DNA of 64,000 bases from NCBI GenBank assembly GCA_963695545.1, contig OY968796.1, forward strand, positions 864,001-928,000, given 5' to 3'. Positions within the stretch are counted from its first letter, which is position 1. Each line of letters begins with the position of its first letter. Of the stretch, positions 12,730 to 29,913 are shown one piece after another. The notes beneath the pieces were generated by a model that worked only from the letters and a program-made list of their open reading frames with translations, was not told the origin of the DNA and did not search any database. The translations under genes and the position numbers were made by a program. This DNA comes from Terriglobia bacterium (GTDB lineage Bacteria > Acidobacteriota > Terriglobia > Acidiferrales > UBA7541).

Positions 12730-12756
12730 GGATCGAATGATTCGCTTCTTGGCTCC

Positions 12757-14841
12757 TTATCCCGCGGACAGCGCGCGCGACACGGCTGCCGCGAGCCGCT
12801 CGCCATACGCTGTCCAAGAAAATTCTTCGGCTCGTCGCCGCGCCGCGTGCGCCATGTCCCGGCGACGCTCGGCATTGCAGTACAGCTCGACCAAGCGCTC
12901 GGCCAGCGGCTCGATCTCCCCGGCCGGCACGAGGAATCCTTCGATGCCGTTGCGCACCACTGAACCCGCGCTCGGCGTGGCAATTACGGGCAGGCCGGAC
13001 GCCATCGCCTCATAGGTCACCAGCGCCGAGCCTTCGTGCAGCGACGGAAGAACGAACACGTCGGCGCGGCGATAGATTTCGGCCAGCACAGCCTGCGAGG
13101 TTTGCGGCCGCCAGACGAACGTGTCGCGATAGCGTGGAAGCCAGTGCCCCCCGCCCACGATCTCTCCCACAAGTTCCAATTGGGCGTGGGGCAAATGCAA
13201 ACTGCGGAAAGCCTCGAGCAATTGCGCGATGCCTTTTGTTTGCGAGAGCCTGCCGACGAACAACACGCGAAAAACTCCGTCCGTGGCGCGTGGTTCGGGT
13301 GCGAAACGCTCGAGATCCGCGCCGAACGGCACATCCAAGATCCGTTCCGGCGCGGCGCCGGAAGCGAGCAGCGCCTCGCGCACGTAACCTGATGGCGCGA
13401 GAATGGCGTCGGCAAGGCGCATCTCTTCTCGATCTCTCGCGAGCCGCTCGTCCGACAAAGTCTCGGGATGCGGAAGCGAGTCCGCAAAATCGGGCCAGCG
13501 CTCGGCTTCGCGCGCGAAAAGATGCCGCGCGTGCAAGAGCGGTGCGCTGCTTTGATCGAGGATGGTGCGAATCCCCAGGCGATGCGCCGCGCGAAACGTG
13601 GCCATCGCGCAAGTATCGAAACAAATCACTCCGGCGGGACGTTCACGCTGGAGACAGCGCGCCACGCTCGAATCGAAAACACGGTTGCGCCAGCCCGATA
13701 GAAATTCCCAGTGCCGGCGCCCCGCGCGAAAACGCGTCGCTAGAAAGTAAGCGCCTTCAACCAATGGACGCGTGAGGATTCGTTCGGCTGGAATTTCGGG
13801 ATACGATCGCCGCGCGCACTGCCGCCGGAATTTTTCGGCCTGCGCCTCCGGAAGAAGCCGCAGCGCGCCAGCCAACGGCCCCGCAGCGGAAAAACGCACG
13901 CCGGTTACGAATCGCTTGAGCATGCCCGAGCGATTGAGCGCCACGGCCGCGCGCTCGCAATGCTGGCCGCCGGGATGCGCCAGCAAAACACTTTGTTGCG
14001 AGGAAGTACCTTCACCGGGTCGAACTCTCGACGGGCGAATCGGTGTGCACTCTCTCGCCGGGCCCGCCGGCTTCTGCGCCACCACCAACAGACGAAACGC
14101 GTGGCCGGCCACGCGTTCCCAGCGCTCATGTCGCCGCCGCAGCGCCCACACGATTCGGAAACGCGTTTCCTCAATCAATTGCTCGAGGTGCGTGGCACGG
14201 AAACGGAATGGATGGCAGAGCACGGCGAGCGTATCGCGATCGCGCCGGCCGGCGTAGGCGTGAAACTTGATGAGGCTCGCGATCGAAACCGTGTCGCATC
14301 CCAGAATCAAATAGCCGCCAGGACGCAAAATCCGAAAACATTCGCTCAACACCGCCGCGGGCGATTCGACGTGGTCGAGCACGTTGTATGAAGCCACGAT
14401 CGCAACGGAGCCCGTGTCCACAGGCAGATCTTCCCCGCGCGCTTCGATGTGCGTGTAATTGCGGCGGCATTCGGCGACCAGCGCGTGCATCGGTCGAGGA
14501 AGATCGATAGCGGGCGCGGCCGCGGGAAGCGGATCGACGCCGAGCAGGCTCCCTTCGGTTGAAAGAAAATGCAGCATGCCGATTCCCATCGGGCCGATGC
14601 CGACTTCTACTTTTTGTCCGTCACAACCAAGCAGCTCCGGCACAGCCGCCACCGCTTGATCGAGCGCGACAACCTTTTCGGCCAAAATGCGCGCCTGTTC
14701 GCGCAGCGAGCGGCGCGCGTGTTCCCAATAAATGGCTTCACCGCGCTGCGCGATTCGCCATCGCCCCGCATCCACGGCGAGAATGAGGTGCGCCGGGCCG
14801 GGAATGGCTTCAGATTTCATTTCAGGAGTTTCAAAGCGCAT
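12757..14841 (-). CDS. SAM methyltransferase + GT4 fusion (694 aa)
   Basis: N-terminal VEVGIGP, YNVLDHV, LRPGG; C-terminal FVGRLSQTKG, PSLHEGSALVTYEAMASG. Confidence 0.8.
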   Translation of the reverse strand: MRFETPEMKSEAIPGPAHLILAVDAGRWRIAQRGEAIYWEHARRSLREQARILAEKVVALDQAVAAVPELLGCDGQKVEVGIGPMGIGMLHFLSTEGSLLGVDPLPAAAPAIDLPRPMHALVAECRRNYTHIEARGEDLPVDTGSVAIVASYNVLDHVESPAAVLSECFRILRPGGYLILGCDTVSIASLIKFHAYAGRRDRDTLAVLCHPFRFRATHLEQLIEETRFRIVWALRRRHERWERVAGHAFRLLVVAQKPAGPARECTPIRPSRVRPGEGTSSQQSVLLAHPGGQHCERAAVALNRSGMLKRFVTGVRFSAAGPLAGALRLLPEAQAEKFRRQCARRSYPEIPAERILTRPLVEGAYFLATRFRAGRRHWEFLSGWRNRVFDSSVARCLQRERPAGVICFDTCAMATFRAAHRLGIRTILDQSSAPLLHARHLFAREAERWPDFADSLPHPETLSDERLARDREEMRLADAILAPSGYVREALLASGAAPERILDVPFGADLERFAPEPRATDGVFRVLFVGRLSQTKGIAQLLEAFRSLHLPHAQLELVGEIVGGGHWLPRYRDTFVWRPQTSQAVLAEIYRRADVFVLPSLHEGSALVTYEAMASGLPVIATPSAGSVVRNGIEGFLVPAGEIEPLAERLVELYCNAERRRDMAHAARRRAEEFSWTAYGERLAAAVSRALSAG

Positions 14842-14853
14842 GCTTCTCCTCGC

Positions 14854-16446
14854 CTACGCGCTGCGCACCACGCCCGACATCCAACGGCTCAGCACGCCCG
14901 ATTGCCATCGCAAGAAATGCCCGCAAGCCGTGGCCTCTGGCACGCGCAGGATCAGGCTGCCGAGGAAAAAAACTGCGATGCTCGCGCAGAATCCGCCGCT
15001 CACCTCGAGCCCAGAACCGACGCGCGGCACTTCCGTGGCCTGACCGAGAAGCGCGCCTGCCGCGGCGCCGGCCCAGCCGCTCACAACGCCGAGCGCGGTA
15101 AGCTCGAAAGCAAACGGCAACCATGCGCGCACATCCGCGAAACCCGCTCGGCCATAGAGCGCAGCGAGCAATGCCAGCGCGCACGACCAGCCGAGGATTG
15201 TATAAAGTGACGCGAGGCCGTCTGCGCCCCAGCGCGCGGCCCAAAGCGCTGCAACCGTCAGCGCTAAGCATCCTCCGAGGCTCACGATCGTCGGCAACCA
15301 AGCTTGCTGCCGGGCATAGAGCATTTTTTGTGCGTGGGTAATGATCACCACTGCCGGCGTTGATAGACTCAGCAGTCCAAACAACTGCGCGACGTGCGCC
15401 GAAGCCTGCGCGCCGAGGGCGCCGCGCTCCAGTAGCAACGCCACAATCGGACGGCGCAGTGCCAGCGCCCATGCGGCCGTGGGAGCCGCAAGAAATAAAC
15501 CCATGCGCAGTCCGCGCGTGCCCAGAGTTTCCAGATCCGCAGGCGCTCCCGTGGAGCGTTCGTCGGCGAAGCGCGGAAACAAAACCGTGGCCAGCGTCAG
15601 CGGCGCAAGCGAGATCAAAAGCCCGAGCTTGAATGCGTAGCCGAAAACAGCGAGACTTCCCGTCGGCAAACCCGACAACACGCGATTGATCACCAGCGGC
15701 GACCAAATTCCAGCAAGGAACATTCCCAGAAGAGGAATTGAAAGCGCGAGACCTCGGCGCACGTCCGGATCGCGAAGGCCGAACGCGAAACTCGCGCGCG
15801 CCCGATCTTTTCTGACCAGTGGAACAAGGCGACCGAGCGTCAGCGCGGAGCCCACTGCGACCGAGACGATCGTGGCGAAGATCAAAGGCCCGGAAGTCGC
15901 GCGCGCCGCAACCACCACGATCGCCGCGAGCAAAAGATTGCGCGCGAGTTGCGCAACCGAGGGCAGCCAGAAAATGCGTTGCGTATAAAGCAGCGCCGTG
16001 GCCACCCCGGTCACAACCAGCGGCGCGTAGGCCAATCCAATCCAGCGAACAAACGCCAAGGCTTCGGCGCGCCCAGGACCCGCGAGCCCTCCGGCCAGCA
16101 ACCACACCACGGCTTTCGGCCACAAAAATTGCGCCGCGCCAAACAGTCCCGCGCCGAGCAGAAAAACGTTGCCGATTCCCTGCGCCACGCGCCAGGCTTC
16201 CGCTGCGCCGCGCCGCGCCCGGCAATCCGTGAACACCGGCACCAGCACATGCGGCAGAATTTGCAGCACCAGCAGTTGTTGCCCCATCAGCAACAGCATC
16301 GAGCCGATGCGATATGCATCGGCGATGCTCGACGTGCCGTAGCGCCACGCCAAGGCCATCTCCACGGCCATGCCGGCCACCGGGCTCAGCAGCGAAAGAA
16401 TGGTGAGCGCGATTGCGGCGCGCGCCGTCTCGTAGGCCGGACGCAT
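14854..16446 (-). CDS. MOP-superfamily flippase, MurJ/MviN-like
   Basis: AWRYGTSSIADAY, LVPVF, LFPRFA, IVALLLERGA, MLYARQ patterns of MviN; about 14 TM segments; TGATG coupling with the upstream gene. Confidence 0.8.
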   Translation of the reverse strand: MRPAYETARAAIALTILSLLSPVAGMAVEMALAWRYGTSSIADAYRIGSMLLLMGQQLLVLQILPHVLVPVFTDCRARRGAAEAWRVAQGIGNVFLLGAGLFGAAQFLWPKAVVWLLAGGLAGPGRAEALAFVRWIGLAYAPLVVTGVATALLYTQRIFWLPSVAQLARNLLLAAIVVVAARATSGPLIFATIVSVAVGSALTLGRLVPLVRKDRARASFAFGLRDPDVRRGLALSIPLLGMFLAGIWSPLVINRVLSGLPTGSLAVFGYAFKLGLLISLAPLTLATVLFPRFADERSTGAPADLETLGTRGLRMGLFLAAPTAAWALALRRPIVALLLERGALGAQASAHVAQLFGLLSLSTPAVVIITHAQKMLYARQQAWLPTIVSLGGCLALTVAALWAARWGADGLASLYTILGWSCALALLAALYGRAGFADVRAWLPFAFELTALGVVSGWAGAAAGALLGQATEVPRVGSGLEVSGGFCASIAVFFLGSLILRVPEATACGHFLRWQSGVLSRWMSGVVRSA

Positions 16447-17300
16447 CAGCACACCCACTCGCGCGCGAAATAAGCGTGGGACGGCGGCGCGAGAGCCATG
16501 CGAGCAAAACCGTGTTGCCGGAGCAGGCGCTCGCAGGCGCCCAGGCTCTGTGCGCCGTGATACTCCATCACGATGCGCTCGATGCGATCGAGGACGGGCC
16601 GCGCGCCTTCGAGCGCTTCGAGTTCCGAACCTTCGACGTCGAGTTTCAGGAGATGAACGGCCGGAACGGCGTAGCAATCCAAAAGCGCTGGGAGCGTCGT
16701 CACATCCACGAAAATCTCAGACCACGCACTCGCCGATTCGTCCGCGCCTTTCTCCGTCATGGCCCCGGCCAGCGCCAGATGTCCGAGCGTCGATGCGTCC
16801 GATCGCCGGAACGCCGCTCGGCCCACCGCGCGTCCTACGGCTAAACGCAGCGCCGTAACCGCCGCAGCACCATTGCGCTCGAGATTTATTCCCAGACGAG
16901 CGAAGGTCTCAGGATCCGGCTCCAGCGCGAAAATCCGCGCGCAAGCGGCGCGCGCGGCGCGCAGCGAAAACATTCCGATGTTCGCGCCGCAATCGACCAC
17001 GCACCAACCCGGCCGCAGCGCGAACGCCGGATGCCGCTCGTACACAAGGTCTCGGAAAATTTCCTGATAGAGACACAACTCGCCGCCGCCGGGGCGCACA
17101 TGAATCTCCAACCCGCCGAGCCGAATCGCGCACTCGCCGTGCCCGCGAGAGCCCAGGCCCGCGCGGCCCAGCGCGCGTCGCGCGATATATCCGGCAAGCG
17201 CGCGATGCTCGGCGAATCCCCGCGCGTCGTGCCAGCAACCTGCCGCCGCGCGAAGCATCGGCTTGAAGTGACTCCATTCCGTTTGGGCGGCATTGCTCAC
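16446..17300 (-). CDS. FkbM-family methyltransferase
   Basis: VVDCGANIG, ALEPDP, LLKLDVEGSE, IVMEYH; GTGA coupling. Confidence 0.85.
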   Translation of the reverse strand: MSNAAQTEWSHFKPMLRAAAGCWHDARGFAEHRALAGYIARRALGRAGLGSRGHGECAIRLGGLEIHVRPGGGELCLYQEIFRDLVYERHPAFALRPGWCVVDCGANIGMFSLRAARAACARIFALEPDPETFARLGINLERNGAAAVTALRLAVGRAVGRAAFRRSDASTLGHLALAGAMTEKGADESASAWSEIFVDVTTLPALLDCYAVPAVHLLKLDVEGSELEALEGARPVLDRIERIVMEYHGAQSLGACERLLRQHGFARMALAPPSHAYFAREWVC

Positions 17301-17911
17301 GATCTCGCTCCCGCTCTGGCTGCGCGCGCGAATCGGCCGGCGCCGCGGCCCAGGTTCGACAAAATCCACGCCGCGGCGCGCGGCAGATCTTCGGCGCGCG
17401 CATCGGGTCTCGCGCCGCGAACTTTGGCGGACGCGCGCGTCGCGGCGCGTAGCGGTCGCGCCGCCGCTCTCGGACCGACCAGAATCGTGCGGCATCCCGC
17501 GGCGCGGCCCGCGGCGATGTCTTTCGCGGAATCGCCAACCAGAAACGAGCCGCGCAAACTCACACGCCATTGCCGCGCGGCGTCCAGCAGCAAGCCCGGC
17601 AGCGGCTTCCGGCACTCACAATGATCGGCGTCGCGATGCGGGCAAACGTAAATCCCGTCCAGCTCGATTTCGCGGTCGAGCGTCTGGTGCATGCGCTCAA
17701 GTTCCGCGGCGTGCAAGCGCCCGCGCGTGAGTTCGGGTTGGTTGGTGACCACCAAAGCCAATAAGCCCGCGCGGCGCAGCTTCCGAACCGCGCGCGCCAC
17801 GCCGGGCAGCACGGCGAAGTCCGCAAGGCGCAGCGGCGAAAGCCAGCGGCCGTCGCGACGCACCAGCGCGTTCAGAACTCCGTCTCTATCGAGAAACAGT
17901 GCTCGCCGCAT
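17297..17911 (-). CDS. gmhB: GmhB-like HAD sugar bisphosphate phosphatase
   Basis: FLDRDGVLN, VTNQ, CPH...CECRKP Zn motif, GDSAKD. Confidence 0.85.
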   Translation of the reverse strand: MRRALFLDRDGVLNALVRRDGRWLSPLRLADFAVLPGVARAVRKLRRAGLLALVVTNQPELTRGRLHAAELERMHQTLDREIELDGIYVCPHRDADHCECRKPLPGLLLDAARQWRVSLRGSFLVGDSAKDIAAGRAAGCRTILVGPRAAARPLRAATRASAKVRGARPDARAEDLPRAAAWILSNLGRGAGRFARAARAGARS

Positions 17912-18527
17912 GAGCCCTTTTTCTTTCGGCGCCGGCGCGGATGCGCTCGGCCACGCAGAAGGTCAGCAGGTGATGAATCACAACGTGAAAGGATTCAACG
18001 TGCGGCGTGGTGTGATACGGCACGATCACCGCGGCGTCGGCCAATTGGCGCATGGCCCCGCCGGTGAAACCGGCCAGGCCAATCGTTTGGCCGCCGTGCT
18101 GCTTTGCGAATTCCATGGCGCGCAATAAATTCTGCGACCACAATCCCGCGCGATCGCGCCCGCTGCCGCCATGCACGCTGATCGCGATCAGCAGATCGCC
18201 CGGGCGAAACAGCGTTTCGAGCTGCCGCAGATAGACGTTTTCCCAGCCGTCGTCGTTCACCAGCGCGCTCATCAGCGGCGCGTTGTCTCCGAGCGAGAGC
18301 ACGCGCAAGCGCGGCTGGTGCGGCACGATCGTGCACTTGAACAAATCCGCGGCCAGATGCGTGGCCGTGCCCGCCGAGCCGCCATTGCCGCAGGTGAACA
18401 CCGTGGCGCCGCGCTGCCAGGCCTCCCACAGCAGCTCAACGGCGCGGTCGAGAGATGCGCGGTCGATTTTTTCCGTGATCTCCTTCACACCCCGAAGGTA
18501 CTCGCCGATATATTCTCCGTTGCGCAT
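17886..18527 (-). CDS. gmhA: GmhA-like SIS sugar-phosphate isomerase
   Basis: CGNGGS..A.H.AADL, ALVNDDG, GFTGG, HVESFH; insertion after ISVHG. Confidence 0.8.
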   Translation of the reverse strand: MRNGEYIGEYLRGVKEITEKIDRASLDRAVELLWEAWQRGATVFTCGNGGSAGTATHLAADLFKCTIVPHQPRLRVLSLGDNAPLMSALVNDDGWENVYLRQLETLFRPGDLLIAISVHGGSGRDRAGLWSQNLLRAMEFAKQHGGQTIGLAGFTGGAMRQLADAAVIVPYHTTPHVESFHVVIHHLLTFCVAERIRAGAERKRAHAASTVSR

Positions 18528-18569
18528 ATTGCGCCTCCTTCAGTCATCCAGTCGTCTTTCAATCTTTCG

Positions 18570-19577
18570 TTACGCATCGATTCGCACCACAGCGTTCGTG
18601 CGCGCCGATTCGTACGCCGCGGCCGCCAGACGTAGCGCCTGCCAGCCGTCCCAACCGCTCGCTTCTGGAGCGCGCTCCTCGCGAATGGCGGCCGTAAATT
18701 CCGCCCACTCCGCGGCCCAGGAGGTGTCTTCGCCCAGAAATTCGATTTGCTGTTCCGCCGGGGCGCCGCTTGCGCGCCGCTCGCCGATCACCAGGCGCTC
18801 CGGTCCGTAGCTGCCGCCTAATCCTTCGATCTCGATGTAACCGCTTTCGCCGAACACCTCGAACGAAAATAGGTTCTTCCACTGCGTCCAGCTTGCGTGC
18901 AGACTCGCGGTAACGCCTTCGGCGGTGCGCAGCAAACAAAACGCGTTGTCTTCCACCGCGATCGGCCAGTACGCCGACGAAACCATCGCGGACATTTCCG
19001 AGAATTCGCCGGCGAACCAGCGAAACAAATCGAGCGCGTGCACGCCCTGATCGAGCAATTCGCCGCCGCCGGAAACGCGATCGGCGCGCCATTCATGCTC
19101 GTAGCCTGTGCGTCCGCCGTGACCGTAGCGGCAACGCAGCAAGAGAATCCGCCCGATGCGGCCCTCGCGCGCCAGGCGATGCGCCTCCGCAATGGCCGGG
19201 TGATAGCGGTGATTGAAACCGGTCTTGAGAGCGCGCTTGGCGCGCGCCGCGACAGCCACCAGATCGGCCGCTTCCTCAGGAGTGCGCGCCAGCGGCTTTT
19301 CGCAAAGCACGTGCTTGCCGGCCTCGAGCGCCGCTTTCGCCACCGGCGCGAGCCATTGGTGCGGCGTCGCGACGATCACCGCTTCCACGTCGCGCGCGGC
19401 AACGAGCGCTTCGGACTCTGCATACACGCGCGATCCAAACGCGCGCGCCATCACTTCGGCGCGCCCCGCGTCCACGTCCGCCACGGCCACGAGGCGCGCG
19501 CCGCCGGCGCGAGACAACACTTCCGCGCGCCGCGCTCCCGCGCGTCCCGCTCCGACGATGCCGACGCCAAGCGTCAT
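18570..19577 (-). CDS. Gfo/Idh/MocA-family oxidoreductase
   Basis: GIVGAG, HVLCEKPL, GFNHRYHP, GGGELLDQGVH. Confidence 0.9.
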   Translation of the reverse strand: MTLGVGIVGAGRAGARRAEVLSRAGGARLVAVADVDAGRAEVMARAFGSRVYAESEALVAARDVEAVIVATPHQWLAPVAKAALEAGKHVLCEKPLARTPEEAADLVAVAARAKRALKTGFNHRYHPAIAEAHRLAREGRIGRILLLRCRYGHGGRTGYEHEWRADRVSGGGELLDQGVHALDLFRWFAGEFSEMSAMVSSAYWPIAVEDNAFCLLRTAEGVTASLHASWTQWKNLFSFEVFGESGYIEIEGLGGSYGPERLVIGERRASGAPAEQQIEFLGEDTSWAAEWAEFTAAIREERAPEASGWDGWQALRLAAAAYESARTNAVVRIDA

Positions 19578-20446
19578 CGCGCCTCAAGCACTTCGGTGAA
19601 TTTGCGCCCGTCGATCCGGCGCAGTGTGTAGAGCGACGTGCGGCACAATTCAATGGACCGCCCGCCCAGCGATCTCCAGTCGTCCCAAACCGCGCTGATC
19701 AATCGCCCGGTGATTCCGGCGGCTGCCGGCGAGGCCAAAAACACCGCAAGTTCCGCCGCGCGCTCCGGCGGCGTGCCGCCGGAAGCTTTTTGTTCGAGCG
19801 TCTTCTTGTAAAATTCGGCGCCGGCGCGTTCTCCCGCCGCAAGCACTTCGTCGACCAGACGCGTGTTCACCGCGCCCGGCGCGATGGCATTCACGCGCAC
19901 GCCCGCGTCGCGCACTTCTTCCGCCACGGTTTCGGTCAATCGCACAACGGCGGCCTTTGACGCGCTGTAGGCGGAAAATCGCGGAAATGGCGCGACCGCG
20001 CCACCGCCGGAAAAATTCACGATCACGCCGCTGCGTTGCTCCACCATGCGCGGCAGCACAGCGCGCATCGCGTAAGCCGTGCCCAGCAGGTTCGTCGCGA
20101 TCGCCGCGCTCCAGGCCTCCATGTCGGCGTCAGCCAGTGGACCGATCGGGCCGTACACACCGGCTGCGTTCACCAGCACATCGAGCCGGCCAAACATCTG
20201 CAGCACGCCCATGACCGCGCGCTGCATATCGCCTGGCTCGGCCACGTCGGCTGAAAACGCCTGTGCGCGCGCGCGGCCCGCGCTCAGTTCGTGCGCGACG
20301 CGCTGCAGATGAGCCGATGGCCGCGCGACAAGCGCGACATCCGACCCTTGGCGCGCAAACGCACGCGCCACGGCGCAGCCGATGCCGCGGCTTGCGCCTG
20401 TGACCATTACCACCGAGCGTGCCGCCGCGGCGCCAGCGTGATTCAC
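19574..20446 (-). CDS. short-chain dehydrogenase/reductase
   Basis: TGASRGIG, NAAG, YSASK, NAIAPG; GTG start overlaps the upstream stop. Confidence 0.9.
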   Translation of the reverse strand: MNHAGAAAARSVVMVTGASRGIGCAVARAFARQGSDVALVARPSAHLQRVAHELSAGRARAQAFSADVAEPGDMQRAVMGVLQMFGRLDVLVNAAGVYGPIGPLADADMEAWSAAIATNLLGTAYAMRAVLPRMVEQRSGVIVNFSGGGAVAPFPRFSAYSASKAAVVRLTETVAEEVRDAGVRVNAIAPGAVNTRLVDEVLAAGERAGAEFYKKTLEQKASGGTPPERAAELAVFLASPAAAGITGRLISAVWDDWRSLGGRSIELCRTSLYTLRRIDGRKFTEVLEAR

Positions 20447-21777
20447 AGGGCACGCTCCGCCCGCGATCGTGATTCCGCGCGCCCCAAACCCACGCCCCAG
20501 TAGGCCAGGCCTGCGGCTCCCGCGGCGCTGCGATCGAGAAAATTGTGCGCGTCCACCAGTACCGGCCGCGCGAGCGACGCGCGCAGCCGCGCGAAATCCA
20601 GAGCGCGAAATTCCGGCCACGGCGTCATTAGAACCACGGCGTCAGCGCGCTCGGCCGCCTGGTAGGGATCGGCGGCCAGCGTCACTCCGCGCGTTTCCGC
20701 GCACTCCGCGTGCACCTGCGGATCGTGCGCGCGCACCTGCGCGCCCATGCGCGTCAATCGCGCGGCGAATTCAAGAGACGCCGAACGGCGCAGTGTGCTG
20801 GTGCCCGGCTTGTAGGTCAGTCCCAGCAGCGCAATCGTCGCGCCACGCAATCCTCCGCAAGCCCCCGCCACGCGCTCCGCAAGACGCGCCAGCCGTCCTC
20901 GATTTACCTCGAGCGCGGCGTCCAGCAGCCGCGTGGGAAGCGAAGCGCGCGCCCCCAAGCCGCGCAGCGTCTGCACATCGCGCGCCAATGTGCCGCCGCT
21001 GAAGCCAGGCCCCGGATCGAGAAACGCCTGCGGGCCGATGCGTCGGTCGCGGCGAAGCACCTGCATCACTTCGCGCACATCCGCGCCGGAGACCTCCGCC
21101 AGATCGGCAAGTTCGTTCGCGAAGCTGATGGAACTGGCGAGAAAAGCGTTTACGGCGTGTTTTGAAAGCTCGGCGCTTTCCCAGCTCATGGGTAGCGCGT
21201 GCGTCGAAATTCCCCGGTACAGGCGCAGAAATTCCTGCGCGTCGTCCGGCTCGTCGGCGCCCACCACCAGAAAATCCGGTGCGAGAAATGTTTCGAGTGC
21301 GCGGCCCAGGCGAAGATTTTCAGGCTGATAGATCAGCCGCGCCGCAAGCGCCGGCGCTTCGCGCAAGCGCATCTGAAGTTGCGCGAGTGTTCCCGCCGGA
21401 ACCTGACTCATCACCACGATGAACACGCCCCGCGGCATTCGCGGCGCCTCTTCGACTATGGCGTCTACGGCGTTAAGAATCGGCGTGAGATCGCTGTGAT
21501 CGTTTTCGTCCACCGGCGTGTCGAACGTTACGTACACGGCGTCAGCGCCTTCGACCGCTTGCGCAACCGATGCCACAAATTGCAATCGTCCCGCGGCCTG
21601 CTCGCGCCGGACGGCTTCGGCCAAGCCCGGCTCAAACACCGGCGGCTCGCTGCGCTCAAGCGACGCGACCGTTCGCGTGTCCGGGTCGGTTGCGCGTACG
21701 GTGTGTCCGAGAGACGCGAGACCCGCGGCCGCAACCGTGCCCAGATGCCAGAGTCCGATTAGGCCGATGCGCGCCAT
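20443..21777 (-). CDS. UDP-glucose/GDP-mannose dehydrogenase family protein lacking the catalytic Cys
   Basis: GLWHLG, FDTP, PENLRLG, SAELSKHAVNAFLA, LLGLTYKPGT; PGPGFSGGTLARD in place of the canonical G(F/Y)GG.C.PKD. Confidence 0.85.
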   Translation of the reverse strand: MARIGLIGLWHLGTVAAAGLASLGHTVRATDPDTRTVASLERSEPPVFEPGLAEAVRREQAAGRLQFVASVAQAVEGADAVYVTFDTPVDENDHSDLTPILNAVDAIVEEAPRMPRGVFIVVMSQVPAGTLAQLQMRLREAPALAARLIYQPENLRLGRALETFLAPDFLVVGADEPDDAQEFLRLYRGISTHALPMSWESAELSKHAVNAFLASSISFANELADLAEVSGADVREVMQVLRRDRRIGPQAFLDPGPGFSGGTLARDVQTLRGLGARASLPTRLLDAALEVNRGRLARLAERVAGACGGLRGATIALLGLTYKPGTSTLRRSASLEFAARLTRMGAQVRAHDPQVHAECAETRGVTLAADPYQAAERADAVVLMTPWPEFRALDFARLRASLARPVLVDAHNFLDRSAAGAAGLAYWGVGLGRAESRSRAERAL

Positions 21778-22802
21778 GCGTGGTCTCCATTTCCATTGCT
21801 GTAGCCGGCGCCATTGCTCAAATTGGCGACGACTTTTGTGCCCTCGAAATCGAACCGGTAACGCATTTCGCGCAGGCCGGCCGCGCGCATGGCCTCGCGC
21901 AATTGCTGGTGCTTGCTCTCGGTGTAAAAAACGAAGAAGCCGCCGCCGCCGGCGCCGGAAATCTTTCCGCCCAGCGCCCCGTTCTGCTTGGCCAATTCGT
22001 AAAGTTCGTCGAAACGCGGATTCGAGACGCGGTTTGAGAGTTTTTTCTTGGCTTGCCAGTGGCGATCGAGTTCGCAGCCAAAGCGAGTCAGGTCTCCCGC
22101 TTCCAACATCTCGCGGATGCGGTAGCCCACCTCCTTGATTGCGTGCAGGCTCTCGGTGACCGGGGAGTGCGCGAGCGTCGCGCCGCGGCTTTGTTCGTCA
22201 AGGATCGCCAGACTCGAGCGTTCCGTGCCGGTATAGAACGCCAGCAGATTCCGCCCCAGGTCTTCCAGCGTGGCTTCGGAGATCTGCGCGCGATTCACCT
22301 CAACGTTGCCGTCGCGATCGATTTCAAGCATCGTCAATCCGCCGAATGACGCCATGTACTGATCCTGTTTGCCGATGGGCTTGGCCAGGATCTCGATTTC
22401 CAGGCGGCAGGCTTCTTCGGCCAGCGTGCGGTATTCAACCGGCGTGCGGCACAGTGTGTGCAGCGCATGCAACAAACCGACTGCATAGCAGCTTGAAGAT
22501 CCGAGCCCCGTGCCCGCCGGCACGTCGGCCATCGAAGTGATCTCGATGCCGCGCTCGATGCCCGCAAAGCGCAGTGCCTCGCGCGCGATTTCATGCTGCA
22601 GATCGTCTCGATGCGTCACGGTTTCCGAGCGCGAATATTTCACGCGCACCAAATCGTCCACCACCGGGCGATTCACGTTCACGAACATATATTTGTCGAT
22701 GGCCGCGGCCAGGATGAACCCGCCGTAGCGCGAGTAGTAACTCGGCAAATCCGTTCCGCCGCCGCCGAGCGTGATGCGAAACGGTGTGCGCGTGATGATC
22801 AT
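21759..22802 (-). CDS. GHMP sugar-phosphate kinase (HddA-like)
   Basis: MIITRTPFRITLGGGGTD, PAGTGLGSSS, GKQDQY, GKISGAGGGG. Confidence 0.88.
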   Translation of the reverse strand: MIITRTPFRITLGGGGTDLPSYYSRYGGFILAAAIDKYMFVNVNRPVVDDLVRVKYSRSETVTHRDDLQHEIAREALRFAGIERGIEITSMADVPAGTGLGSSSCYAVGLLHALHTLCRTPVEYRTLAEEACRLEIEILAKPIGKQDQYMASFGGLTMLEIDRDGNVEVNRAQISEATLEDLGRNLLAFYTGTERSSLAILDEQSRGATLAHSPVTESLHAIKEVGYRIREMLEAGDLTRFGCELDRHWQAKKKLSNRVSNPRFDELYELAKQNGALGGKISGAGGGGFFVFYTESKHQQLREAMRAAGLREMRYRFDFEGTKVVANLSNGAGYSNGNGDHAWRASA

Positions 22803-22857
22803 CGGCGCCCCGCGCTTTTCGCGCCGTTCGGAAATCGCGTGCGCGTCCGCTGCGGCG

Positions 22858-23979
22858 TCATGCGTGCACCGCTGAGCGGCGCAGCACGCCGCGCGCGGCC
22901 ATTTCCGACGCGGCCTGCTCGGTCGAATCCGGCACATCGTCTTGTTGCCTTGCCCAATCGACGTACTCCGCCACAATCTGTTCCACCGCGGCGCGCGGCC
23001 GCCAGCCGAGTCTGCCAATCTTCGCACTCGACGAAATCGTGTGGCGCGGATCTCCCACGCGGAATTCTCCGCGCTCAATCGGCTCGAGATTCTCGCCGCA
23101 GGCTTGGGTCACCAGACGCGCGAATTCCCTCACCGTGACGCCACGCTCGCCGCCCACGTTGAACACCTCAAAATCCGCCGCCGGATTTTCGAGCACGGCC
23201 ACGTGCGCCGAAACCACGTCCTGCACGTGCACGTAATCGCGCAACTGGCCTCCATCTTCGTAAATAATCGGCGCCTTTCGATGCAGCAGGCGCTGCGTGA
23301 ATGTCCGGCACACTCCGGAATACGCGTTGTGCGGCGAATTGCGCGGCCCTTGCACGATTGAGTAGCGCAGCGCCACGGTCGGAATGCCGTAACGCCGGCC
23401 CAGCGCCAGGCCCAGCATTTCAAGCGCATATTTTGAGATGGCGTACGCGGTGTGCGGATTGGCCGACGATTCATCGAGCGCTGCCGGCGTCATCACGCGC
23501 TTGCATTCGCGGCAGGTGTGTTCCCATTCGCCGCGCTCGAGCTGCTCGATCGAGCGGGGCGCTGGATACGCAATGCCGTGCTCCGCGCACGCGTAGCGCC
23601 CTTCGCCGTAAACCGATTGCGAACTTGCGAGCACGACCTTCCGCAGTGCAAGCCGGCGCGCAACCGCGATCTCGTAGAGCAGCGCGGTTGACGCGGCATT
23701 GACGCTGATAAAGGTGCTGAAGTCCGGCATGTAATCCTGATAAGCCGCCAAATGAAAGACGGCGTCGACGCCGTCGAGCGCGCGCTCCCAGGCACCCCTG
23801 TCGCGCACGTCGCCTTCGATGAATTCCGCATCGCGCGCGAGATATTCAGGCTGCCCCGCGCGGTGCACGCGCGTTTGCAGGCTATCGAGCACGCGCACGG
23901 CATAGCCGCGCTCGAGCATGCGGTCCACCGTGTGCGACCCGATAAATCCCGCGCCGCCGGTGATCAGAATTCGTTTCAC
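22858..23979 (-). CDS. NAD-dependent epimerase/dehydratase with a CxxH...CxxC insertion
   Basis: TGGAGFIG, SSQSVYG, YAISK, RDYVHV; insertion YACAEHG...TCRECK. Confidence 0.88.
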   Translation of the reverse strand: MKRILITGGAGFIGSHTVDRMLERGYAVRVLDSLQTRVHRAGQPEYLARDAEFIEGDVRDRGAWERALDGVDAVFHLAAYQDYMPDFSTFISVNAASTALLYEIAVARRLALRKVVLASSQSVYGEGRYACAEHGIAYPAPRSIEQLERGEWEHTCRECKRVMTPAALDESSANPHTAYAISKYALEMLGLALGRRYGIPTVALRYSIVQGPRNSPHNAYSGVCRTFTQRLLHRKAPIIYEDGGQLRDYVHVQDVVSAHVAVLENPAADFEVFNVGGERGVTVREFARLVTQACGENLEPIERGEFRVGDPRHTISSSAKIGRLGWRPRAAVEQIVAEYVDWARQQDDVPDSTEQAASEMAARGVLRRSAVHA

Positions 23980-24009
23980 GCGCCCAGCCTCGTTTCTTTC
24001 ATCCGCGTT

Positions 24010-25471
24010 TCAATACGCTCCGCGGCCGCGCAGTACCGCGGGAATGGTTTTCAGCAGAATCTTGCAATCCAGCCACAACGACGCCGAAGCGATGTATTCC
24101 AGATCCATTCGCGCCCATTGCTCGAAGCTGCGGATTTCGCTGCGGCCGTTGACCTGCCACAGGCAGGTGATTCCCGGCTTGATGCTCAATTTGCGCCGCT
24201 GCCAGAATTCATATCGCTGTGCTTCTTCCGCGAATGACGGGCGCGGCCCCACCAGGCTCATGTCGCCTTTGAGCACGCTCCACAGTTGCGGCAATTCGTC
24301 CAGGCTGTACTTGCGCAGAATTCGCCCCAGCGGAGTCACGCGCGGATCATTGCGCAGCTTGAATACCGGCCCGTCCATTTCGTTTTGCGCGAGAAAAGCC
24401 GGTTTCAGCTCCTCGGCATTTGTGACCATGGTTCGGAATTTGTAGCCGGTGAACGGCTTCTTGTTGATGCCCAGCACGCGCCAGCGAAAAAAAAATCGGG
24501 CCGTCGGGCGAGGTCAGCCGAACCAGAGCGGCGATCAGCAGGAGCAGCGGCGCAAGCAGCACCAGCAGCGCTGCCGACACGCCCACGTCCAGAATTCGTT
24601 TGGCCGCGCGATAGCTCTCAGGCCGGTCAAGATCAGAAAGTGCCACCGCCGGGCAGCCTGCCACCGGCTCCAGACGCACATCGCGCCATCCCTGCGTGTA
24701 CCCCAGCCGCGGCAAATAAAAATCCGGCAGCACGGCCACGCGCAGGCCTAATTCCAGCGCCGCTTCGATGTGCGCGCGGCAGTTCGGCACGCGCTCGGCC
24801 GGCATGGCCAGAACCACCAGATCCACCGGATGATCGAAAAGATAAGCGCCGATTCCATCGGTTGAACCCAGCAGCGGCGCGCCTTCGATTTCCGGCGGAG
24901 CCGCATCGGGTTCGGGATCGAAGCAGCCCACCAGTTGGTACTCGCAGCTTTCGGTCGATAGCGCGGCGCGCATGAATTCTCGCGCGCGTTCGCGCGTGCC
25001 GATCACGGCGATGCGCACGATGTTGTAAATGTGCGAGCGGCGCGCGCGAAACCATCCGAGCAGTGCTCCGCGCACGGCAAGCGTCGCCGGCACGGCCACG
25101 AGCGAAAAACCGAACACCAGCAGCCGGCTGGTGGTCGCGGCTTTGAACGTGAAAATCAAAAGAGCCAGCGCCGCAAGTCCCAGCAGCGTTGCGCGTATGG
25201 TTTGCCCCAACGCCGCGCCCAGTGGAATTCGCCGCGCCGCCAATAATCCCGCGCGCTCATACAGCGCATACCAGAGCGGAAGAATGATCAGCAGCATCCA
25301 GGCGAATTCTCGGAAGGGTCCGACGCGCGTTGGATCGTGCCGCAGATACGGCCGGTAAAGCGGCAGCGCGCGGTACGACGCATAAAAGCACGCCGAAAGC
25401 GTGGCCGCTTGCGCCACGGCCAAGGCGCGCCGCGCGATACGTGCTTCGAACAATTCGCCTCTGAGATTCAC
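24010..25471 (-). pseudogene. priming undecaprenyl-phosphate glycosyl-1-phosphate transferase (WcaJ/WbaP-like), split by one extra base in a homopolymer (phase-variable, pseudogene or sequencing error)
   Basis: The TM/CoA-binding-like part (ORF 24347-25471) reaches KRILD...SPDGPIFF. The C-terminal part (YKFRTM, DPRVT, RKYSLDELPQL, SLVGPRP, KPGITCLWQV) is in another frame. The break is at A9, 24487-24495. Confidence 0.85.
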
Positions 25472-25505
25472 CGCAATCGCTCCTGCTCGGATTTGTTCCA
25501 GTCGC

Positions 25506-26195
25506 TTACTGTCCGGCGCGCGCTGCGGCCGCGGCCGTAAACGCGCGCGCGGCGTCTGCGTTAAATTGCCGCACGGTCTCGCGGCTGTATTTGTGGTCCA
25601 CCATCTTCGGCAGCATGGCCGGTGGAATGGTGATGATGTCCGCGCCGGCCTCGGCCGCGCGCTGCACGTCCATCACCGAGCGAATGCTTGCCACAAGCAC
25701 GCGCGCCTGAGATTCCCAGCGCCGCAGCCACTGCTGAAGCCCCGCGATCAACTGCGCGGGGTCGTGGCCTTCGTCCGCGACGCGCCCCGCGAACACGCTC
25801 ACGTAACAAGCGCCGGCCTTGGCCGCGAGCACCGCTTGATTGAAGGAAAGAATTGCCGTGGCGTTCACCGGAATTCCCGCGCGGCTGAGCGCGTAAATCG
25901 CTCGCAGGCAGGAATCGCCGTCCTGCGTGACGATCGGAATTTTCACGACCACATTCGACGCCCAGCGCGCAAACGCGCGGCCCTGCTCGATCATCTGCCC
26001 TGGCTCGCTCGCGGTGACTTCTACTGAGAGCGGGCGATGACCCAACAACGCCGCAAGTCGCCGCGCCATGGATTCCAGATCGCTCGCGCCATCCTTCAAT
26101 AAAATGCTGGGATTCGTGGTCACGCCGTCGACCACGCCTTCGGCCAGCCAGTGCGTCAATTCCTTTTCATCCGCGGAATCGAGAAAAATCTGCAT
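25506..26195 (-). CDS. transaldolase (TalC/FSA family, transaldolase-type residues)
   Basis: FLDSA, GVTTNPS, SVEV (Glu), VVVKIP (Schiff-base Lys), YVSVFAGR (Phe rather than the FSA Tyr), ASIR. Confidence 0.88.
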   Translation of the reverse strand: MQIFLDSADEKELTHWLAEGVVDGVTTNPSILLKDGASDLESMARRLAALLGHRPLSVEVTASEPGQMIEQGRAFARWASNVVVKIPIVTQDGDSCLRAIYALSRAGIPVNATAILSFNQAVLAAKAGACYVSVFAGRVADEGHDPAQLIAGLQQWLRRWESQARVLVASIRSVMDVQRAAEAGADIITIPPAMLPKMVDHKYSRETVRQFNADAARAFTAAAAARAGQ

Positions 26196-26247: not shown

Positions 26248-28617
26248 TCACGCCGCGCTGCTATGCCCCGGCTTCTCGTCTTCTCCGTAATAGTCGTAGC
26301 GGTAATAGCGGTAGTAGTCGTCGCCGGAACGCACGTCGAGATTGTTCAGCACCACGCCGATCAGATTCGCGCCGACGTCTTCGGCGTAACTCTGCGCGCG
26401 CTGAGCCAGCTCGCGCGGCGTCACGCCGCCTTTGACCACCAGAATCACGCCTTCCACCAGCGTCGCGAGAATGCGCGCGTCGGAAACGTTCAATAGAGGC
26501 GGCGAATCCACCACCACGAACTGATACTCGCCGCGCGCCTCGTCGAGCATCGCGCGCATGCGATCTGAGGAAAGCAACTCCGCGGGATTCGGCGGCACCG
26601 GACCGCACACCAGCGCGTCCAGATTTTCTACGCCCGATGGAATCACTGCTGCGCGCCAATCCTTCTGGCCCGTCAGATAACTCACCAGGCCCAGTCCATT
26701 CGCAAGACCCAGCGCCTTGCGAATACTCGGCCGCCGCATGTCGCCATCGATCAGCAACACGCGCTGATTGAGCTGCGCGAGTGAAATCGCCAAATTCACC
26801 GAGACCGTCGTCTTGCCCTCCGATGGACGCGGGCTCGATACCAATAACGTGCGCGGCGGCTGGTTCGCGCTCGAAAGCATCACCGAAGTGCGCAACCCCC
26901 GAAACGCTTCGCCCAGCGCTGCCGGAGGCTCGATGCCGCCCGCGATGCGATACCAACTTTTCGCCGCGCCGTCCGCGCCTCGCGAATGACCGTTGTCGCC
27001 ATTTCCGTTCGCCGCGACAGTTCCATTCGCGCGCGATTCGCTCCCATCCGCGGTCGCGCCGCGATCCGCCAGGCCATACACGCCGTGACGCTGCCCGTTC
27101 AGCGATTCAACCGAAGGAATCAGACCGAGCGCCGGAAGTCCTAGATACCGCTCGATGTCCTCCGAAGATTTCAAACTGTTGTCGAGATGCTCCTGCAAAA
27201 ACGCTCCGCCCACGCCGAGGCCCAGTCCCAGCACGAACGCCAGCGCCAAATTCAGCGGCAGATTGGGCCTCGCCGCCTTACGCGGCGCTACGGCCTCGTC
27301 AACCACGCGGATATTGCTGGCCTTCAGACCGGCTGAAACGCCGGTTTCCTTCAAGCGCTCGAGCAACCCTTCGTAAAGCTGCCGGTTGGTGTCCACTTCG
27401 CGTTTCAAAATGTTGTATTGCACCGAACGCGAAGCGATCTGATCGGCGTCTTGCTGTTGCGCGCCGAAGGCCTGCTGCACCAAATCCTCGCGGCGCACCG
27501 CGGCCTGATAATCGTTGGTCAATTGATCGGCGGCGCGCTGGCGTTCGCGCGCGATCACGCTGGTGATTTTGTCCTCCTGATTTTGTAGCTCCTGAACTTT
27601 GGGATAATCGGCCGTGAAGGTGGTCTCGAGTTGCGCCTTTTGTCTTTCCACATCGGTTAGTTGCTCGGTCAGATCCTCGATCAGCTTGTTGTCCGCCACG
27701 CCCGGCAGCGCGTCGATTTGACCCGCTTGCACCAACCGATAGAGCGATTCCTTTTCATATCGATCTGCCTGTGCGCGCGTCAATTCTTCCTGTAGCTGCC
27801 GCAACCGCTCGTCCACAATGTTTTCTTCCGAGCCTTTGTCGTCCTGCAGATAAAGCAAACCGTTCGCTTGCGCATACGCTTGCATCTGGTTTTCGGATAT
27901 CTCGAGGCGCCCCTTCAAATCGTCGAGTTGCTGCGTCAGCCACTCGGAAGCCCGCTGCGTGGCGTCCCAACGAACGCGCAGATTCTCGTCGATGTCGGCT
28001 TCCGCCAGCGCGTTCACGATGCGCGCCGCCAGCGCCGGATCGCTCGACTCGAAACGAATCTCCACCAGGCGGCTCAACTTCACCGGCTCAACCGACAGCC
28101 GATCCTGAAACACGCCCAGCGCGCGCTCCACCGCCAGCGGATCCGGTGGCGCCATTTGACCGCCCAACACTCCTTCGCCGGCGACCGCGCCCTTGGCCTT
28201 CGGGTTAAATTCCGGCAGCAGGTCCAGTCGCAGTTGCACAATCACCTGCCGCGCAAGCGTGTCGCTCTGCAGAATTTTGTACTCGGTCTCGAGATACGTG
28301 TCCGAAACGGTTTCGAGCTGAAACAGTTCCTGCACGCTCAAAATGTTCGGATTCTCTTTCTCGATTTCAAGAAGCGCGCCGGATTGATAGATCGGCGTTT
28401 CTCTGAGCGTGCCCACCAGCACCAGTGTGAACAGCACGGCGAGGACCGTCAGCACTGTCCACCGCCGCTTGCGCAGCACGCGCCAATAACTCAGAAGGCT
28501 GGTCGATTCCTGCATGTCGAGCGTCGCCGGCCGAATCGCCCGCAGCGCGCGCAAGCGCTCCAGACTCTTGGGAGCCGGCTCGTAGCGCTGGATTTTCGTT
28601 TCCTGCTCGTTCGTCAT
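26248..28617 (-). CDS. wzc: Wzc-type polysaccharide co-polymerase / BY-kinase
   Basis: Two TM segments flank a coiled-coil periplasmic part; EAFRGLRT, Walker A SEGKTT, IDGDMRRP, VVDSPP, C-terminal Tyr cluster DDYYRYYRYDYY. Start may be 28659. Confidence 0.92.
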   Translation of the reverse strand: MTNEQETKIQRYEPAPKSLERLRALRAIRPATLDMQESTSLLSYWRVLRKRRWTVLTVLAVLFTLVLVGTLRETPIYQSGALLEIEKENPNILSVQELFQLETVSDTYLETEYKILQSDTLARQVIVQLRLDLLPEFNPKAKGAVAGEGVLGGQMAPPDPLAVERALGVFQDRLSVEPVKLSRLVEIRFESSDPALAARIVNALAEADIDENLRVRWDATQRASEWLTQQLDDLKGRLEISENQMQAYAQANGLLYLQDDKGSEENIVDERLRQLQEELTRAQADRYEKESLYRLVQAGQIDALPGVADNKLIEDLTEQLTDVERQKAQLETTFTADYPKVQELQNQEDKITSVIARERQRAADQLTNDYQAAVRREDLVQQAFGAQQQDADQIASRSVQYNILKREVDTNRQLYEGLLERLKETGVSAGLKASNIRVVDEAVAPRKAARPNLPLNLALAFVLGLGLGVGGAFLQEHLDNSLKSSEDIERYLGLPALGLIPSVESLNGQRHGVYGLADRGATADGSESRANGTVAANGNGDNGHSRGADGAAKSWYRIAGGIEPPAALGEAFRGLRTSVMLSSANQPPRTLLVSSPRPSEGKTTVSVNLAISLAQLNQRVLLIDGDMRRPSIRKALGLANGLGLVSYLTGQKDWRAAVIPSGVENLDALVCGPVPPNPAELLSSDRMRAMLDEARGEYQFVVVDSPPLLNVSDARILATLVEGVILVVKGGVTPRELAQRAQSYAEDVGANLIGVVLNNLDVRSGDDYYRYYRYDYYGEDEKPGHSSAA

Positions 28618-28692
28618 CGTGCCGCCCTTCGCGTGGTCTCGTGCCGCGTGTTCATTCAAATCTCCGACGACGCTTCGTCCGTGCCGCGCCGC

Positions 28693-29787
28693 TCAAAACG
28701 GGTGATAGATCGCGATGCCCGTGGTGATCTGCACGAGCGCCTCGCTGCCGCGATACAATCCCGATCGCGCGGCGCTGTTCGGCACGAAAACGATGTCGCG
28801 CGCTTCCAGTTCGGGATCTGTCTCTTTCCCGCTCAGAACTTTTCCCAGATTGAGTGGAATCTCGATGCGCTTTCCGGTCGCGGGATCCGTGCGGATGATG
28901 CGCGCCTGGCTGCGCGCCGCCGTGGACGTCAAACCCTCGGCCAGCGAAATCGCCTGCAACACCGAAATGTTGGCGTTGGCGTGCAGGGCGAACCCGCCCG
29001 GCCTGTGCACTTCGCCGACCACGTACACCGTACCGGCCTCGCCCACCTTCACGACGTCTCCCGGAAAAACCAGCACGTTGCTTTTCGTGTCGTCGCCTTC
29101 GAGAAGTCCTGCGATGTTGACTTCCGTGGTTAGCCCCGCTTGCGGCGCCGGGTCGTCCACCGCCGCCTCCGCAGATGCCGTTTGATTCACGCCTCCTCCG
29201 CGCACGATCGTCGCTGTGTCGCCCGCGTCGTCGGCTAGGCCCCCGGCCATCGAGAGCACCTCAATCAGCGATTTCGCTCCGCGAATCTGATACACATCGG
29301 GCTTGACCACTGCGCCGAACACCGAAACCCCGTGGCTTTCCATTTCCTTCACGAACACCGTCACTTGCGGATTTTTCATATAGTGAGCGCGCAGCTCGCC
29401 CGCGAGCGACTCCTCAACGTCCTGCGGCGTCTGCCCGGCCACCGGCACCGCGCCGAGCAGCGGCAATGAAATATCTCCGCCGGCGGAGACGCGAACCGTG
29501 CGGCTCAGGTCCGGCACGCCGAACACCGAAATGTCCAGCAAATCCTCAGGACCAATGCGATAGCTCGCCACTTCCGGTGGCAACGCGCGCCGAAGCTCGT
29601 CGAGGCGGCGGTTGATATCCGCCGATGTTCCGCCTTGCCAGGATTCCGCCGCGCTGGCCGGCGAAGATGAACGAGCTGGTGATGAAGATGGAGACGACGA
29701 TGTCTGCGCAAACATCCACGGACACGCCACGCCGAGAGCGCAACTGCCCAACGCCAGAACCGCGACGACAAATCCGCGCACGGACAT
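28693..29787 (-). CDS. wza: Wza-like polysaccharide export protein (Poly_export + SLBB)
   Basis: YRIGPEDLLDISV, GDISLPLLG, NPQVTV, SLBB repeats, DIVFVP; N-terminal signal peptide. Start may be 29805. Confidence 0.9.
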   Translation of the reverse strand: MSVRGFVVAVLALGSCALGVACPWMFAQTSSSPSSSPARSSSPASAAESWQGGTSADINRRLDELRRALPPEVASYRIGPEDLLDISVFGVPDLSRTVRVSAGGDISLPLLGAVPVAGQTPQDVEESLAGELRAHYMKNPQVTVFVKEMESHGVSVFGAVVKPDVYQIRGAKSLIEVLSMAGGLADDAGDTATIVRGGGVNQTASAEAAVDDPAPQAGLTTEVNIAGLLEGDDTKSNVLVFPGDVVKVGEAGTVYVVGEVHRPGGFALHANANISVLQAISLAEGLTSTAARSQARIIRTDPATGKRIEIPLNLGKVLSGKETDPELEARDIVFVPNSAARSGLYRGSEALVQITTGIAIYHPF

Positions 29788-29913
29788 CACTTTTCCCCCA
29801 CTCACAATCGGTCTTGGAACGTTCGCTGCGCGCCCCCGCTTCTTCTCAGGACGCTCTCGGGTTCGGGAAGAGTTCAGAAATGGAACTCAACCCAGGCGCT
29901 TTCACCCTACCTA

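Follow-up and report, generated by a model that had tools for sequence, protein, structure and literature searches.

The stretch of DNA analysed here, called the window below, comprises 64,000 nucleotides (contig OY968796.1, positions 864,001 to 928,000) from the genome of a Terriglobia bacterium. The system in question is a run of eight co-oriented genes at 17297–26195, which an earlier note, made from the sequence alone, had read as a lincosamide-like octose (eight-carbon sugar) pathway inside a polysaccharide operon. All eight were found on the minus strand and belong to the families claimed. In the direction of transcription they encode a short, TalC-type, LmbR/CcbR-like transaldolase (25506–26195; PF00923; TIGR00875 at 166 bits against a cut-off of 246); an extended short-chain dehydrogenase/reductase (SDR) epimerase with a Cys-containing insertion (22858–23979; PF01370; YxxxK motif); a GHMP sugar-phosphate 1-kinase of the HddA/LmbP family (21759–22802; PF00288/PF08544; NF049969 below cut-off); a Cys-less homologue of UDP-glucose dehydrogenase, placed in the LmbL/CcbL subfamily by its clade and active-site residues (20443–21777); a classical SDR, the proposed terminal ketoreductase (19574–20446; PF00106; TGxxxGIG and YxxxK motifs); a Gfo/Idh/MocA oxidoreductase of the LmbZ/CcbZ subfamily (18570–19577; PF01408/PF22725); an SIS sugar-phosphate isomerase with a 9-residue loop (17886–18527; PF13580; TIGR00441 at 105 against 209); and a HAD-IIIA phosphatase of the GmhB/LmbK family (17297–17911; NF006506 and TIGR00213 below cut-off; DxDG and CxCRKP motifs). 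Adjacent genes of the block are spaced by −26 to +55 bases, and four of the six junctions from epimerase to phosphatase overlap.

The lincosamide route includes 6-epimerisation and 6,8-dehydration steps, the latter requiring a carbon 8: LmbL and CcbZ eliminate the C8 hydroxyl, and the result is a 6-keto sugar. Two papers name LmbR as a transaldolase and LmbN, LmbK and LmbO as the C8 isomerase, phosphatase and guanylyltransferase (PMC4351081), and lead from GDP-octose to GDP-lincosamide through LmbM, LmbL, CcbZ and CcbS (PMC12945683); a 2015 BLAST table in the former gives acidobacterial proteins as the nearest outside relatives of CcbK, CcbZ and CcbO. Clusters for comparison were obtained by searching 401 genomes of one chaplin-rich genus, taken as Streptomyces, for the kinase. 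The lincosamide sugar gene set was present in 6 of the 14 matching loci, two of them celesticetin-type and four lincosamide-like. The former (L136, L137) have the celesticetin gene order, and the lengths of their N, O, S and F proteins (202, 232, 386 and 416 amino acids) equal those of the published ccb table; in L137 the protein at the D position matches the solved CcbD (E 2e-202) and the Gfo protein carries the CcbZ carrier domain at its end. The other four (L139–L142; G369:C6, G565:C13, G398:C17, G300:C8) have the lincomycin gene order and are more diverged.

When the L137 proteins were compared with the whole Terriglobia genome (G000, a single contig of 4.16 Mb), R, P, Z, N and L each matched the window gene first: R at 192 bits with no second match, P at 143 bits (next 104), Z at 247 (119), N at 162 (83) and L at 193 (157). 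The best matches of M, O and S lie outside the window. The published lmbN primer arm matched neither the genome contigs searched nor L139, and no LmbN-like fusion was seen among the best 120 of 5297 longer SIS proteins.

The catalytic Cys that the earlier note had reported missing from the UDP-glucose dehydrogenase (Ugd) homologue is indeed absent from the alignment, its position being taken by Thr inside a GGTL-RD motif that is invariant in 116/116 homologues. A 99-row alignment has Thr-Leu for the catalytic Cys and Gln for the Thr in all 81 cassette proteins (cassettes being gene sets of this kind, below) and in all six lincosamide-type proteins, and the 12 ordinary enzymes all keep Cys and Thr. 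The 87 cassette and lincosamide-type rows also show no variation at Asp86, Asn154, Leu157, His207 and Arg266, none of which is the most frequent residue at its position in the 12 ordinary ones; the groups were set by a Trp-His motif, itself left out of the residue counts. With a careful mixture model (31 rows), cassette and lincosamide-type proteins are joined at 100/100, with unresolved inner order; L047_18113, labelled as cassette in this tree, is a second, ordinary paralogue of a cassette locus and groups with ordinary enzymes. The AlphaFold model of the window protein has the Ugd fold (TM 0.90 to PDB 4a7p). It shares 38% identity with that Ugd and keeps the site Lys, Asn, Glu and Asp, but differs from it in the missing catalytic Cys and Thr, in a glycine-rich loop with Trp-His and in its clade with LmbL-type proteins. 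Judged by these residues, the homologue is not a decayed Ugd. A phage collection gave 11 dehydrogenase matches, at 31–35% identity. The window Gfo protein has 40–46% identity to the lincosamide Z-type proteins, and a 40-row tree (LG+G4, with long outgroup branches) joins cassette and lincosamide Z proteins at 100/99.

The insertion noticed in the SIS isomerase was confirmed as nine residues relative to GmhA. The loop reads SVHGGSGRDRAGLWSQN in the window and SVHGGSRATDASAVSSN in L136, against STSGNSRN in a GmhA of G000, and has the CcbN-type length and motif. A loop occurs in 45/45 cassette isomerases (43 by pattern, 2 by eye), in two lengths, and in none of the heptose-type ones examined; 39 of the 45 SIS-bearing cassette loci also have a transaldolase. 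With the loop columns included, the isomerase forms a clade with the CcbN-type proteins at 98/99, and it lies outside the GmhA clade. Its top plasmid matches were heptose-type or unrelated loci with no cassette in the 4 of 28 records examined. The transaldolase is a true one, as had been stated: the Glu/Phe pair and the Schiff-base Lys are kept as in solved TalC-type transaldolases, and we take this pair to mark a transaldolase rather than a fructose-6-phosphate aldolase (FSA). Identity is 42–45% to CcbR-type proteins and about 31–38% to a large second subtype of cassette transaldolases; the clade with CcbR-type has 99/97 support, with a narrow outgroup of six housekeeping TalC and two E. coli FSA proteins. 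By trees, best matches and residues, four of the enzymes (L, Z, N and R) are thus members of lincosamide subfamilies; the operon, which has no M, O or S orthologue, is not a full member of the pathway.

The remaining sugar genes follow the lincosamide set less closely. The kinase is of the HddA family and the phosphatase of the GmhB family, both at family level and below equivalog cut-offs. The window kinase is the best G000 match of the CcbP-type kinase but does not group with it; the kinase tree was rejected as support for an octose, as octose and heptose kinases are not separated in it. The epimerase at 22858–23979 has 26–29% identity to CcbM-type proteins. A second extended-SDR epimerase/dehydratase, which the note had also listed, is present at 8163–9143 (minus strand; family scan) and occupies the same place in two relatives. 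Both were considered as LmbM and rejected, since both fall outside the CcbM clade in a quick tree, so that the LmbM assignment made earlier does not hold. Most cassettes elsewhere have a CcbM-like epimerase (35–58% identity) adjoining the dehydrogenase gene. The proposed one-to-one correspondence with Lmb proteins thus stands for R, N, L and Z; it fails for M and O and is indecisive for P and K. The phylogenies set L, Z, N and R apart from Ugd, other Gfo proteins, GmhA and TalC/FSA, and do not place the kinase or either epimerase with the lincosamide set.

The nearest O-type match in G000 is an HddC-like gene 1.4 Mb away, at 32%. The PF00483 genes of this genome are GlgC-, RmlA-, ManC-, GalU-, GlmU- and HddC-like, and there are three GalT-like genes. 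On two Streptomyces plasmids (L013, L014), genes for a heptose-type isomerase, phosphatase and kinase are accompanied by a galT-like gene and by glycogen-synthase-like transferases; this hints that the nucleotidyltransferase may be replaceable by a GalT-type enzyme. The best plasmid match (53%) to the window epimerase at 22858–23979 is also on L014.

Heptose genes of the ordinary kind lie elsewhere in G000: HddA-, HddC-, GmhA- and GmhB-like genes occupy C1:2275044–2278049, where the GmhA clears its family cut-off. Ordinary GmhA genes number two in the genome, and a housekeeping long transaldolase is found at C1:107471. Because of this separate locus and transaldolase, heptose supply is covered without the window genes. 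The heptose locus belongs to a second glycan locus (C1:2275044–2280616, L009) which combines the ordinary GDP-heptose set with a flippase and also has a further nucleotide-sugar dehydrogenase whose reading frame is seemingly split.

The surroundings of the block are those of a polysaccharide operon on the minus strand. At its head (26248–29805) are a Wzc-type chain-length/tyrosine kinase (PF13807/PF02706, TIGR01007) and Wza-type export genes (PF02563). A priming glycosyltransferase of the WcaJ/EPS_sugtrans type (24010–25471; PF02397, TIGR03025), absent from the earlier note, sits between transaldolase and epimerase. Downstream, at 1056–17300, family scans found an FkbM methyltransferase, a MurJ-like flippase, a methyltransferase-GT4 fusion, an HpsL-like membrane protein, several GT4 glycosyltransferases, a GT4-GT2-methyltransferase fusion and a Wzy_C protein. 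One unit therefore holds the priming transferase, flippase, polymerase-like protein, Wzc, Wza and glycosyltransferases of a Wzx/Wzy-dependent operon, the flippase being MurJ-like and the polymerase (Wzy_C, HpsL-like) called from family match alone. Family scans of the flanks, made without a direct search with the T, V, C, D, E and F proteins of thiol transfer and condensation, showed only polysaccharide export and glycosyltransferase genes, and scans of the operon gave no cyclase or C–C-forming enzyme. The priming transferase is split in the window by an extra homopolymer base at 24487. That the gene is broken was considered and rejected: the base is missing from 4/4 short-read assemblies (soil metagenomes of one study, possibly the source sample) and the gene is a single open frame in 5/5 relatives, so the frameshift is an assembly error. 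The two fusions are open reading frames (ORFs) of 1027 amino acids (GT4-GT2-methyltransferase, 3810–6893) and 694 amino acids (methyltransferase-GT4, 12757–14841), the latter with a full-length match in two relatives.

The nearest named relative of G000, among the best 80 matches listed, is a Candidatus Acidiferrales metagenome-assembled genome (MAG) at 87%. Nine of 60 relatives match the isomerase at E 1e-35 and eight of these nine have the loop type. The full window gene order recurs in five of the nine fetched (L026, L027, L030, L031 and L032, the contig of the last ending short of the phosphatase), and a sixth (L029) keeps most of it; the block is for this reason not a chance assemblage, with the proviso that kin genomes are non-independent samples. 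In the remaining two relatives with a loop isomerase the Cys-less dehydrogenase is on another contig, and three genus mates without the isomerase have the ordinary dehydrogenase only. All eight genes have open frames in the window, and their order is kept across several genera at 49–98% identity with catalytic motifs intact. A broken cassette was seen in G005 (C78, L028:10833; genome 66% complete), where the isomerase gene starts 26 codons late and the genes upstream lie elsewhere. In G038 (C10:126–25700; L247, L029) a heptose-type kinase, nucleotidyltransferase and GmhA trio separates the cassette transaldolase from the remaining cassette genes, so that one cluster there combines heptose and higher-sugar sets.

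As the co-occurrence check proposed in the earlier note would have it, the gene set recurs across many bacterial phyla and in archaea, beside glycosyltransferases. A scan of species genomes gave at least 586 confirmed relatives among at least 598 pattern matches. The best 80 listed are MAGs of Acidobacteriota, Chloroflexota, Verrucomicrobiota, Patescibacteria, Planctomycetota, Pseudomonadota, Myxococcota, Actinomycetota and several archaeal groups. Among 45 long loci (at least 16 kb), selected on the dehydrogenase gene, the Gfo gene was present in 41, the kinase in 35, transaldolase and SDR in 32 each, isomerase and phosphatase in 31 each and a nucleotidyltransferase in 29. Glycosyltransferase or export genes lie beside 40 of these 45 (22/45 by window queries and 18/23 of the others by Pfam, with up to six ORFs each). 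The cassette is not equally frequent in all groups: for 301 genomes of Pseudomonadota, two of the 20 best-scoring loci fetched belong to the subfamily, one being the centre genome. Complete nine-gene cassettes with M- and O-type genes are carried on plasmids of the cultured organisms Lawsonia intracellularis (L193, NC_008014.1) and Rhizobium jaguaris (L194), and Rhizobium sp. CB3060 has isomerase and transaldolase matches side by side. Archaeal MAGs (L046, L052, L062, L068, L074, L076, L088 and L095) of Micrarchaeota, Hadarchaeota, Methanospirillum, Altiarchaeales, Methanoperedens and Nanoarchaeia have the Cys-less dehydrogenase, mostly with other cassette genes. A full-text search of the literature, in which most subscription papers were out of reach, gave among the papers listed no description of the cassette or of a linear aldo-octose pathway for surface glycans.

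The suggestion that the SDR stands in for the aminotransferase agrees with the gene counts. In a set of 52 loci spanning 16 kb or more, with one genome represented twice, the SDR occurs without a CcbS-like gene in 34 and together with one in four; 14 have neither and none has the aminotransferase alone; in many SDR-less loci an extended SDR follows directly behind the Gfo gene. No SDR match was obtained in the six lincosamide-type loci. The window operon has no LmbS/CcbS aminotransferase, the best G000 matches lying elsewhere at 31–34%. This distribution is compatible with a final reduction in place of transamination; the 8-deoxy product that the suggestion carried with it is inferred.

Among known systems, the lincosamide GDP-octose sub-pathway of S. 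lincolnensis and S. caelestis, as described in PMC4351081 and PMC12945683, is like the window set in that R, N, L and Z fall in the same clades, with the loop and active-site changes in common, and in the family membership of its kinase and phosphatase. It differs in that the window operon lacks O-, M- and S-type genes, has the SDR and an unrelated epimerase instead, and lies in a Wzy-type polysaccharide operon and not in an antibiotic cluster. The GDP-D-glycero-alpha-D-manno-heptose pathway (GmhA, HddA, GmhB, HddC) shares the isomerase–kinase–phosphatase logic and the same Pfam and NCBIfam families. The window isomerase, however, reaches half the GmhA cut-off score, has the 9-residue loop and lies outside the GmhA clade, and the heptose locus of G000 has no transaldolase, Cys-less dehydrogenase homologue, Z-type Gfo protein or SDR of this kind. 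In Coxiella burnetii, the cbu0674–cbu0678 region presumably encodes a transaldolase, a Gfo protein and a member of the dehydrogenase family too. Compared by description and not by sequence, this region resembles the window in having heptose-pathway-like genes (for a heptose isomerase, an epimerase and an HldE-like enzyme; full lipopolysaccharide depends on them) inside an O-antigen locus, and differs in its use of an HldE-type enzyme; the accessible parts of the papers (PMC5843353, PMC13552124, PMC13252051) make no mention of a transaldolase or octose.

Taken together, the block is probably a lincosamide-type NDP-octose pathway that feeds a Wzy-dependent surface polysaccharide. The operon would make an undescribed eight-carbon coat sugar because close relatives of most lincosamide octose enzymes are present. 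Eight carbons in particular are argued for since chain length is set by two enzymes, and a carbon 8 required by another two, all four of which fall in lincosamide clades and travel together, and since heptose is made by other genes of the genome. The octose proposal of the earlier note is to this extent supported by clades, best matches and residues; chain length, product and its place in the polysaccharide stay at the level of deduction, and that the end product is exactly a neutral 8-deoxy-octose is an evenly balanced call. In the scheme we favour, the dedicated transaldolase would transfer a C3 unit from fructose-6-phosphate or sedoheptulose-7-phosphate to ribose-5-phosphate, giving octulose-8-phosphate, which the loop-type isomerase would turn into aldo-octose-8-phosphate and the GHMP kinase and HAD phosphatase into octose-1-phosphate. 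Activation would fall to a nucleotidyltransferase encoded elsewhere, the closest candidate in G000 being the HddC-like gene of the heptose locus, and an epimerase of another clade would replace LmbM or work on another centre. The Cys-less dehydrogenase homologue and the Gfo protein would jointly remove the C8 hydroxyl to leave a 6-keto sugar; our guess is that the Gfo protein performs the redox steps and the L protein, with Trp in its glycine-rich nucleotide loop, the elimination. The SDR would then reduce the ketone where lincosamide clusters transaminate, giving the neutral 8-deoxy-octose, and GT4 enzymes would put the sugar into the repeat unit, possibly with O-methylation.

Several observations weigh against this reading. 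The reference proteins are orthologues from other Streptomyces and not the assayed LmbR, LmbN, LmbL and CcbZ. In the kinase tree the lincosamide-type kinases group with other Streptomyces kinases (95/87) and the HddA of G000 falls among cassette kinases; the CcbK-type phosphatase matches a G000 gene elsewhere slightly better (95.9 bits) than the window gene (91.3). No epimerase of G000, neither the two in the window nor nine others, enters the CcbM clade of the quick tree. Scans in and around the operon gave no nucleotidyltransferase (PF00483, PF12804, PF01467), the operon has no LmbO-type gene, and an HddC-type gene of full length was not found in the syntenic relatives G029, G034, G033 and G028 (92–99% complete). 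The isomerase clade drops to 93/96, just under the starred level, in a mixture-model tree made without the loop columns. The transaldolase clade also contains a stand-alone Treponema enzyme, and CcbR-type proteins have Gln/Trp at two active-site positions where the window has Glu/Phe, for which reason the choice of acceptor is not transferable from them. An approximately unbiased (AU) test on 26 rows rejected a window Gfo clade sister to the lincosamide proteins (p 0.013), as it did a cassette-only Gfo clade (p 0.029), both results being weaker than they look because the tree had been seen before either group was named. The argument for eight carbons is one of homology, and an ancestral cassette could have made another chain length.

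Some of these points can be turned to a modified NDP-heptose, for which the transaldolase would boost sedoheptulose-7-phosphate and the L, SDR and Gfo proteins would oxidise and reduce C6 or another centre, only the lincosamide lineage having moved to C8. The inseparable kinases and phosphatases, the ordinary Glu/Phe pair, the position of the sole HddC-like gene of G000 in the heptose locus and the heptose-type trio within the G038 cassette are all consistent with it, as are CcbM-like epimerases in loci without transaldolase or loop (L034, L135). Against this, the genome is already supplied with two GmhA genes and a housekeeping transaldolase, the isomerase has the CcbN loop and leaves the GmhA clade, and L and Z are kept as a pair (Gfo in 41/45 long loci) with a rebuilt active site of the lincosamide type, for whose reaction no C7 equivalent is known; we consider a heptose unlikely. 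A longer or cyclised sugar of nine or more carbons, made if the transaldolase accepts a hexose phosphate, is more doubtful again. Higher-carbon O-antigen sugars are known, bradyrhizose being a bicyclic ten-carbon sugar with an eleven-gene operon of unknown chemistry, and the two loop lengths of cassette isomerases would suit such diversity; the window loop, however, has the CcbN length and motif, the transaldolase is nearer to the CcbR type than to the second subtype, and the operon scans gave no cyclase or C–C-forming enzyme.

A pathway left incomplete by loss of the nucleotidyltransferase, delivering no nucleotide sugar in this lineage, would account for the missing transferase in the operon, the lack of an HddC type in the four syntenic relatives and the split cassette of G005 with its isomerase gene without a start. 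It sits badly with eight open frames whose order and catalytic motifs are conserved across several genera, and with the GlgC-, RmlA-, ManC-, GalU- and HddC-like and three GalT-like genes that G000 has to offer, and is very improbable.

Under the octose reading the relation to the antibiotics can be considered. In the Gfo tree the lincosamide proteins are nested among SDR-less cassettes (97/97), and their place inside the cassette radiation suggests that the antibiotic octose route derived from a surface-glycan route. A broader account, put forward tentatively as somewhat short of probable, is that a linear 8-deoxy-octose is a common, unrecognised unit of surface glycans in bacteria and archaea. 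An old transaldolase-primed cassette would make it, and the lincomycin and celesticetin route would have been recruited from this cassette by exchange of the final ketoreductase for an aminotransferase, the acidobacterial variant borrowing its activating enzyme from outside the operon. If the octose reading is right, it predicts that eight-carbon aldoses of one class occur in microbial surface glycans across many phyla and both prokaryotic domains, their genes now being mislabelled as UDP-glucose dehydrogenase and heptose isomerase. It would also explain where a clinical antibiotic class got its unusual sugar, and would provide natural variants of the L/Z enzyme pair. Culturable soil rhizobia with a complete cassette make the reading testable.

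The four loci with the lincomycin gene order (L139–L142) have the full amino-octose gene set together with an LmbT-like glycosyltransferase (about 33%), and L139 also a seryl-tRNA-synthetase-like gene. The 20 kb retrieved for each locus (42 kb for G369) gave no match to CcbC, CcbD, CcbE or CcbF, and these loci possibly specify an undescribed amino-octose natural product.

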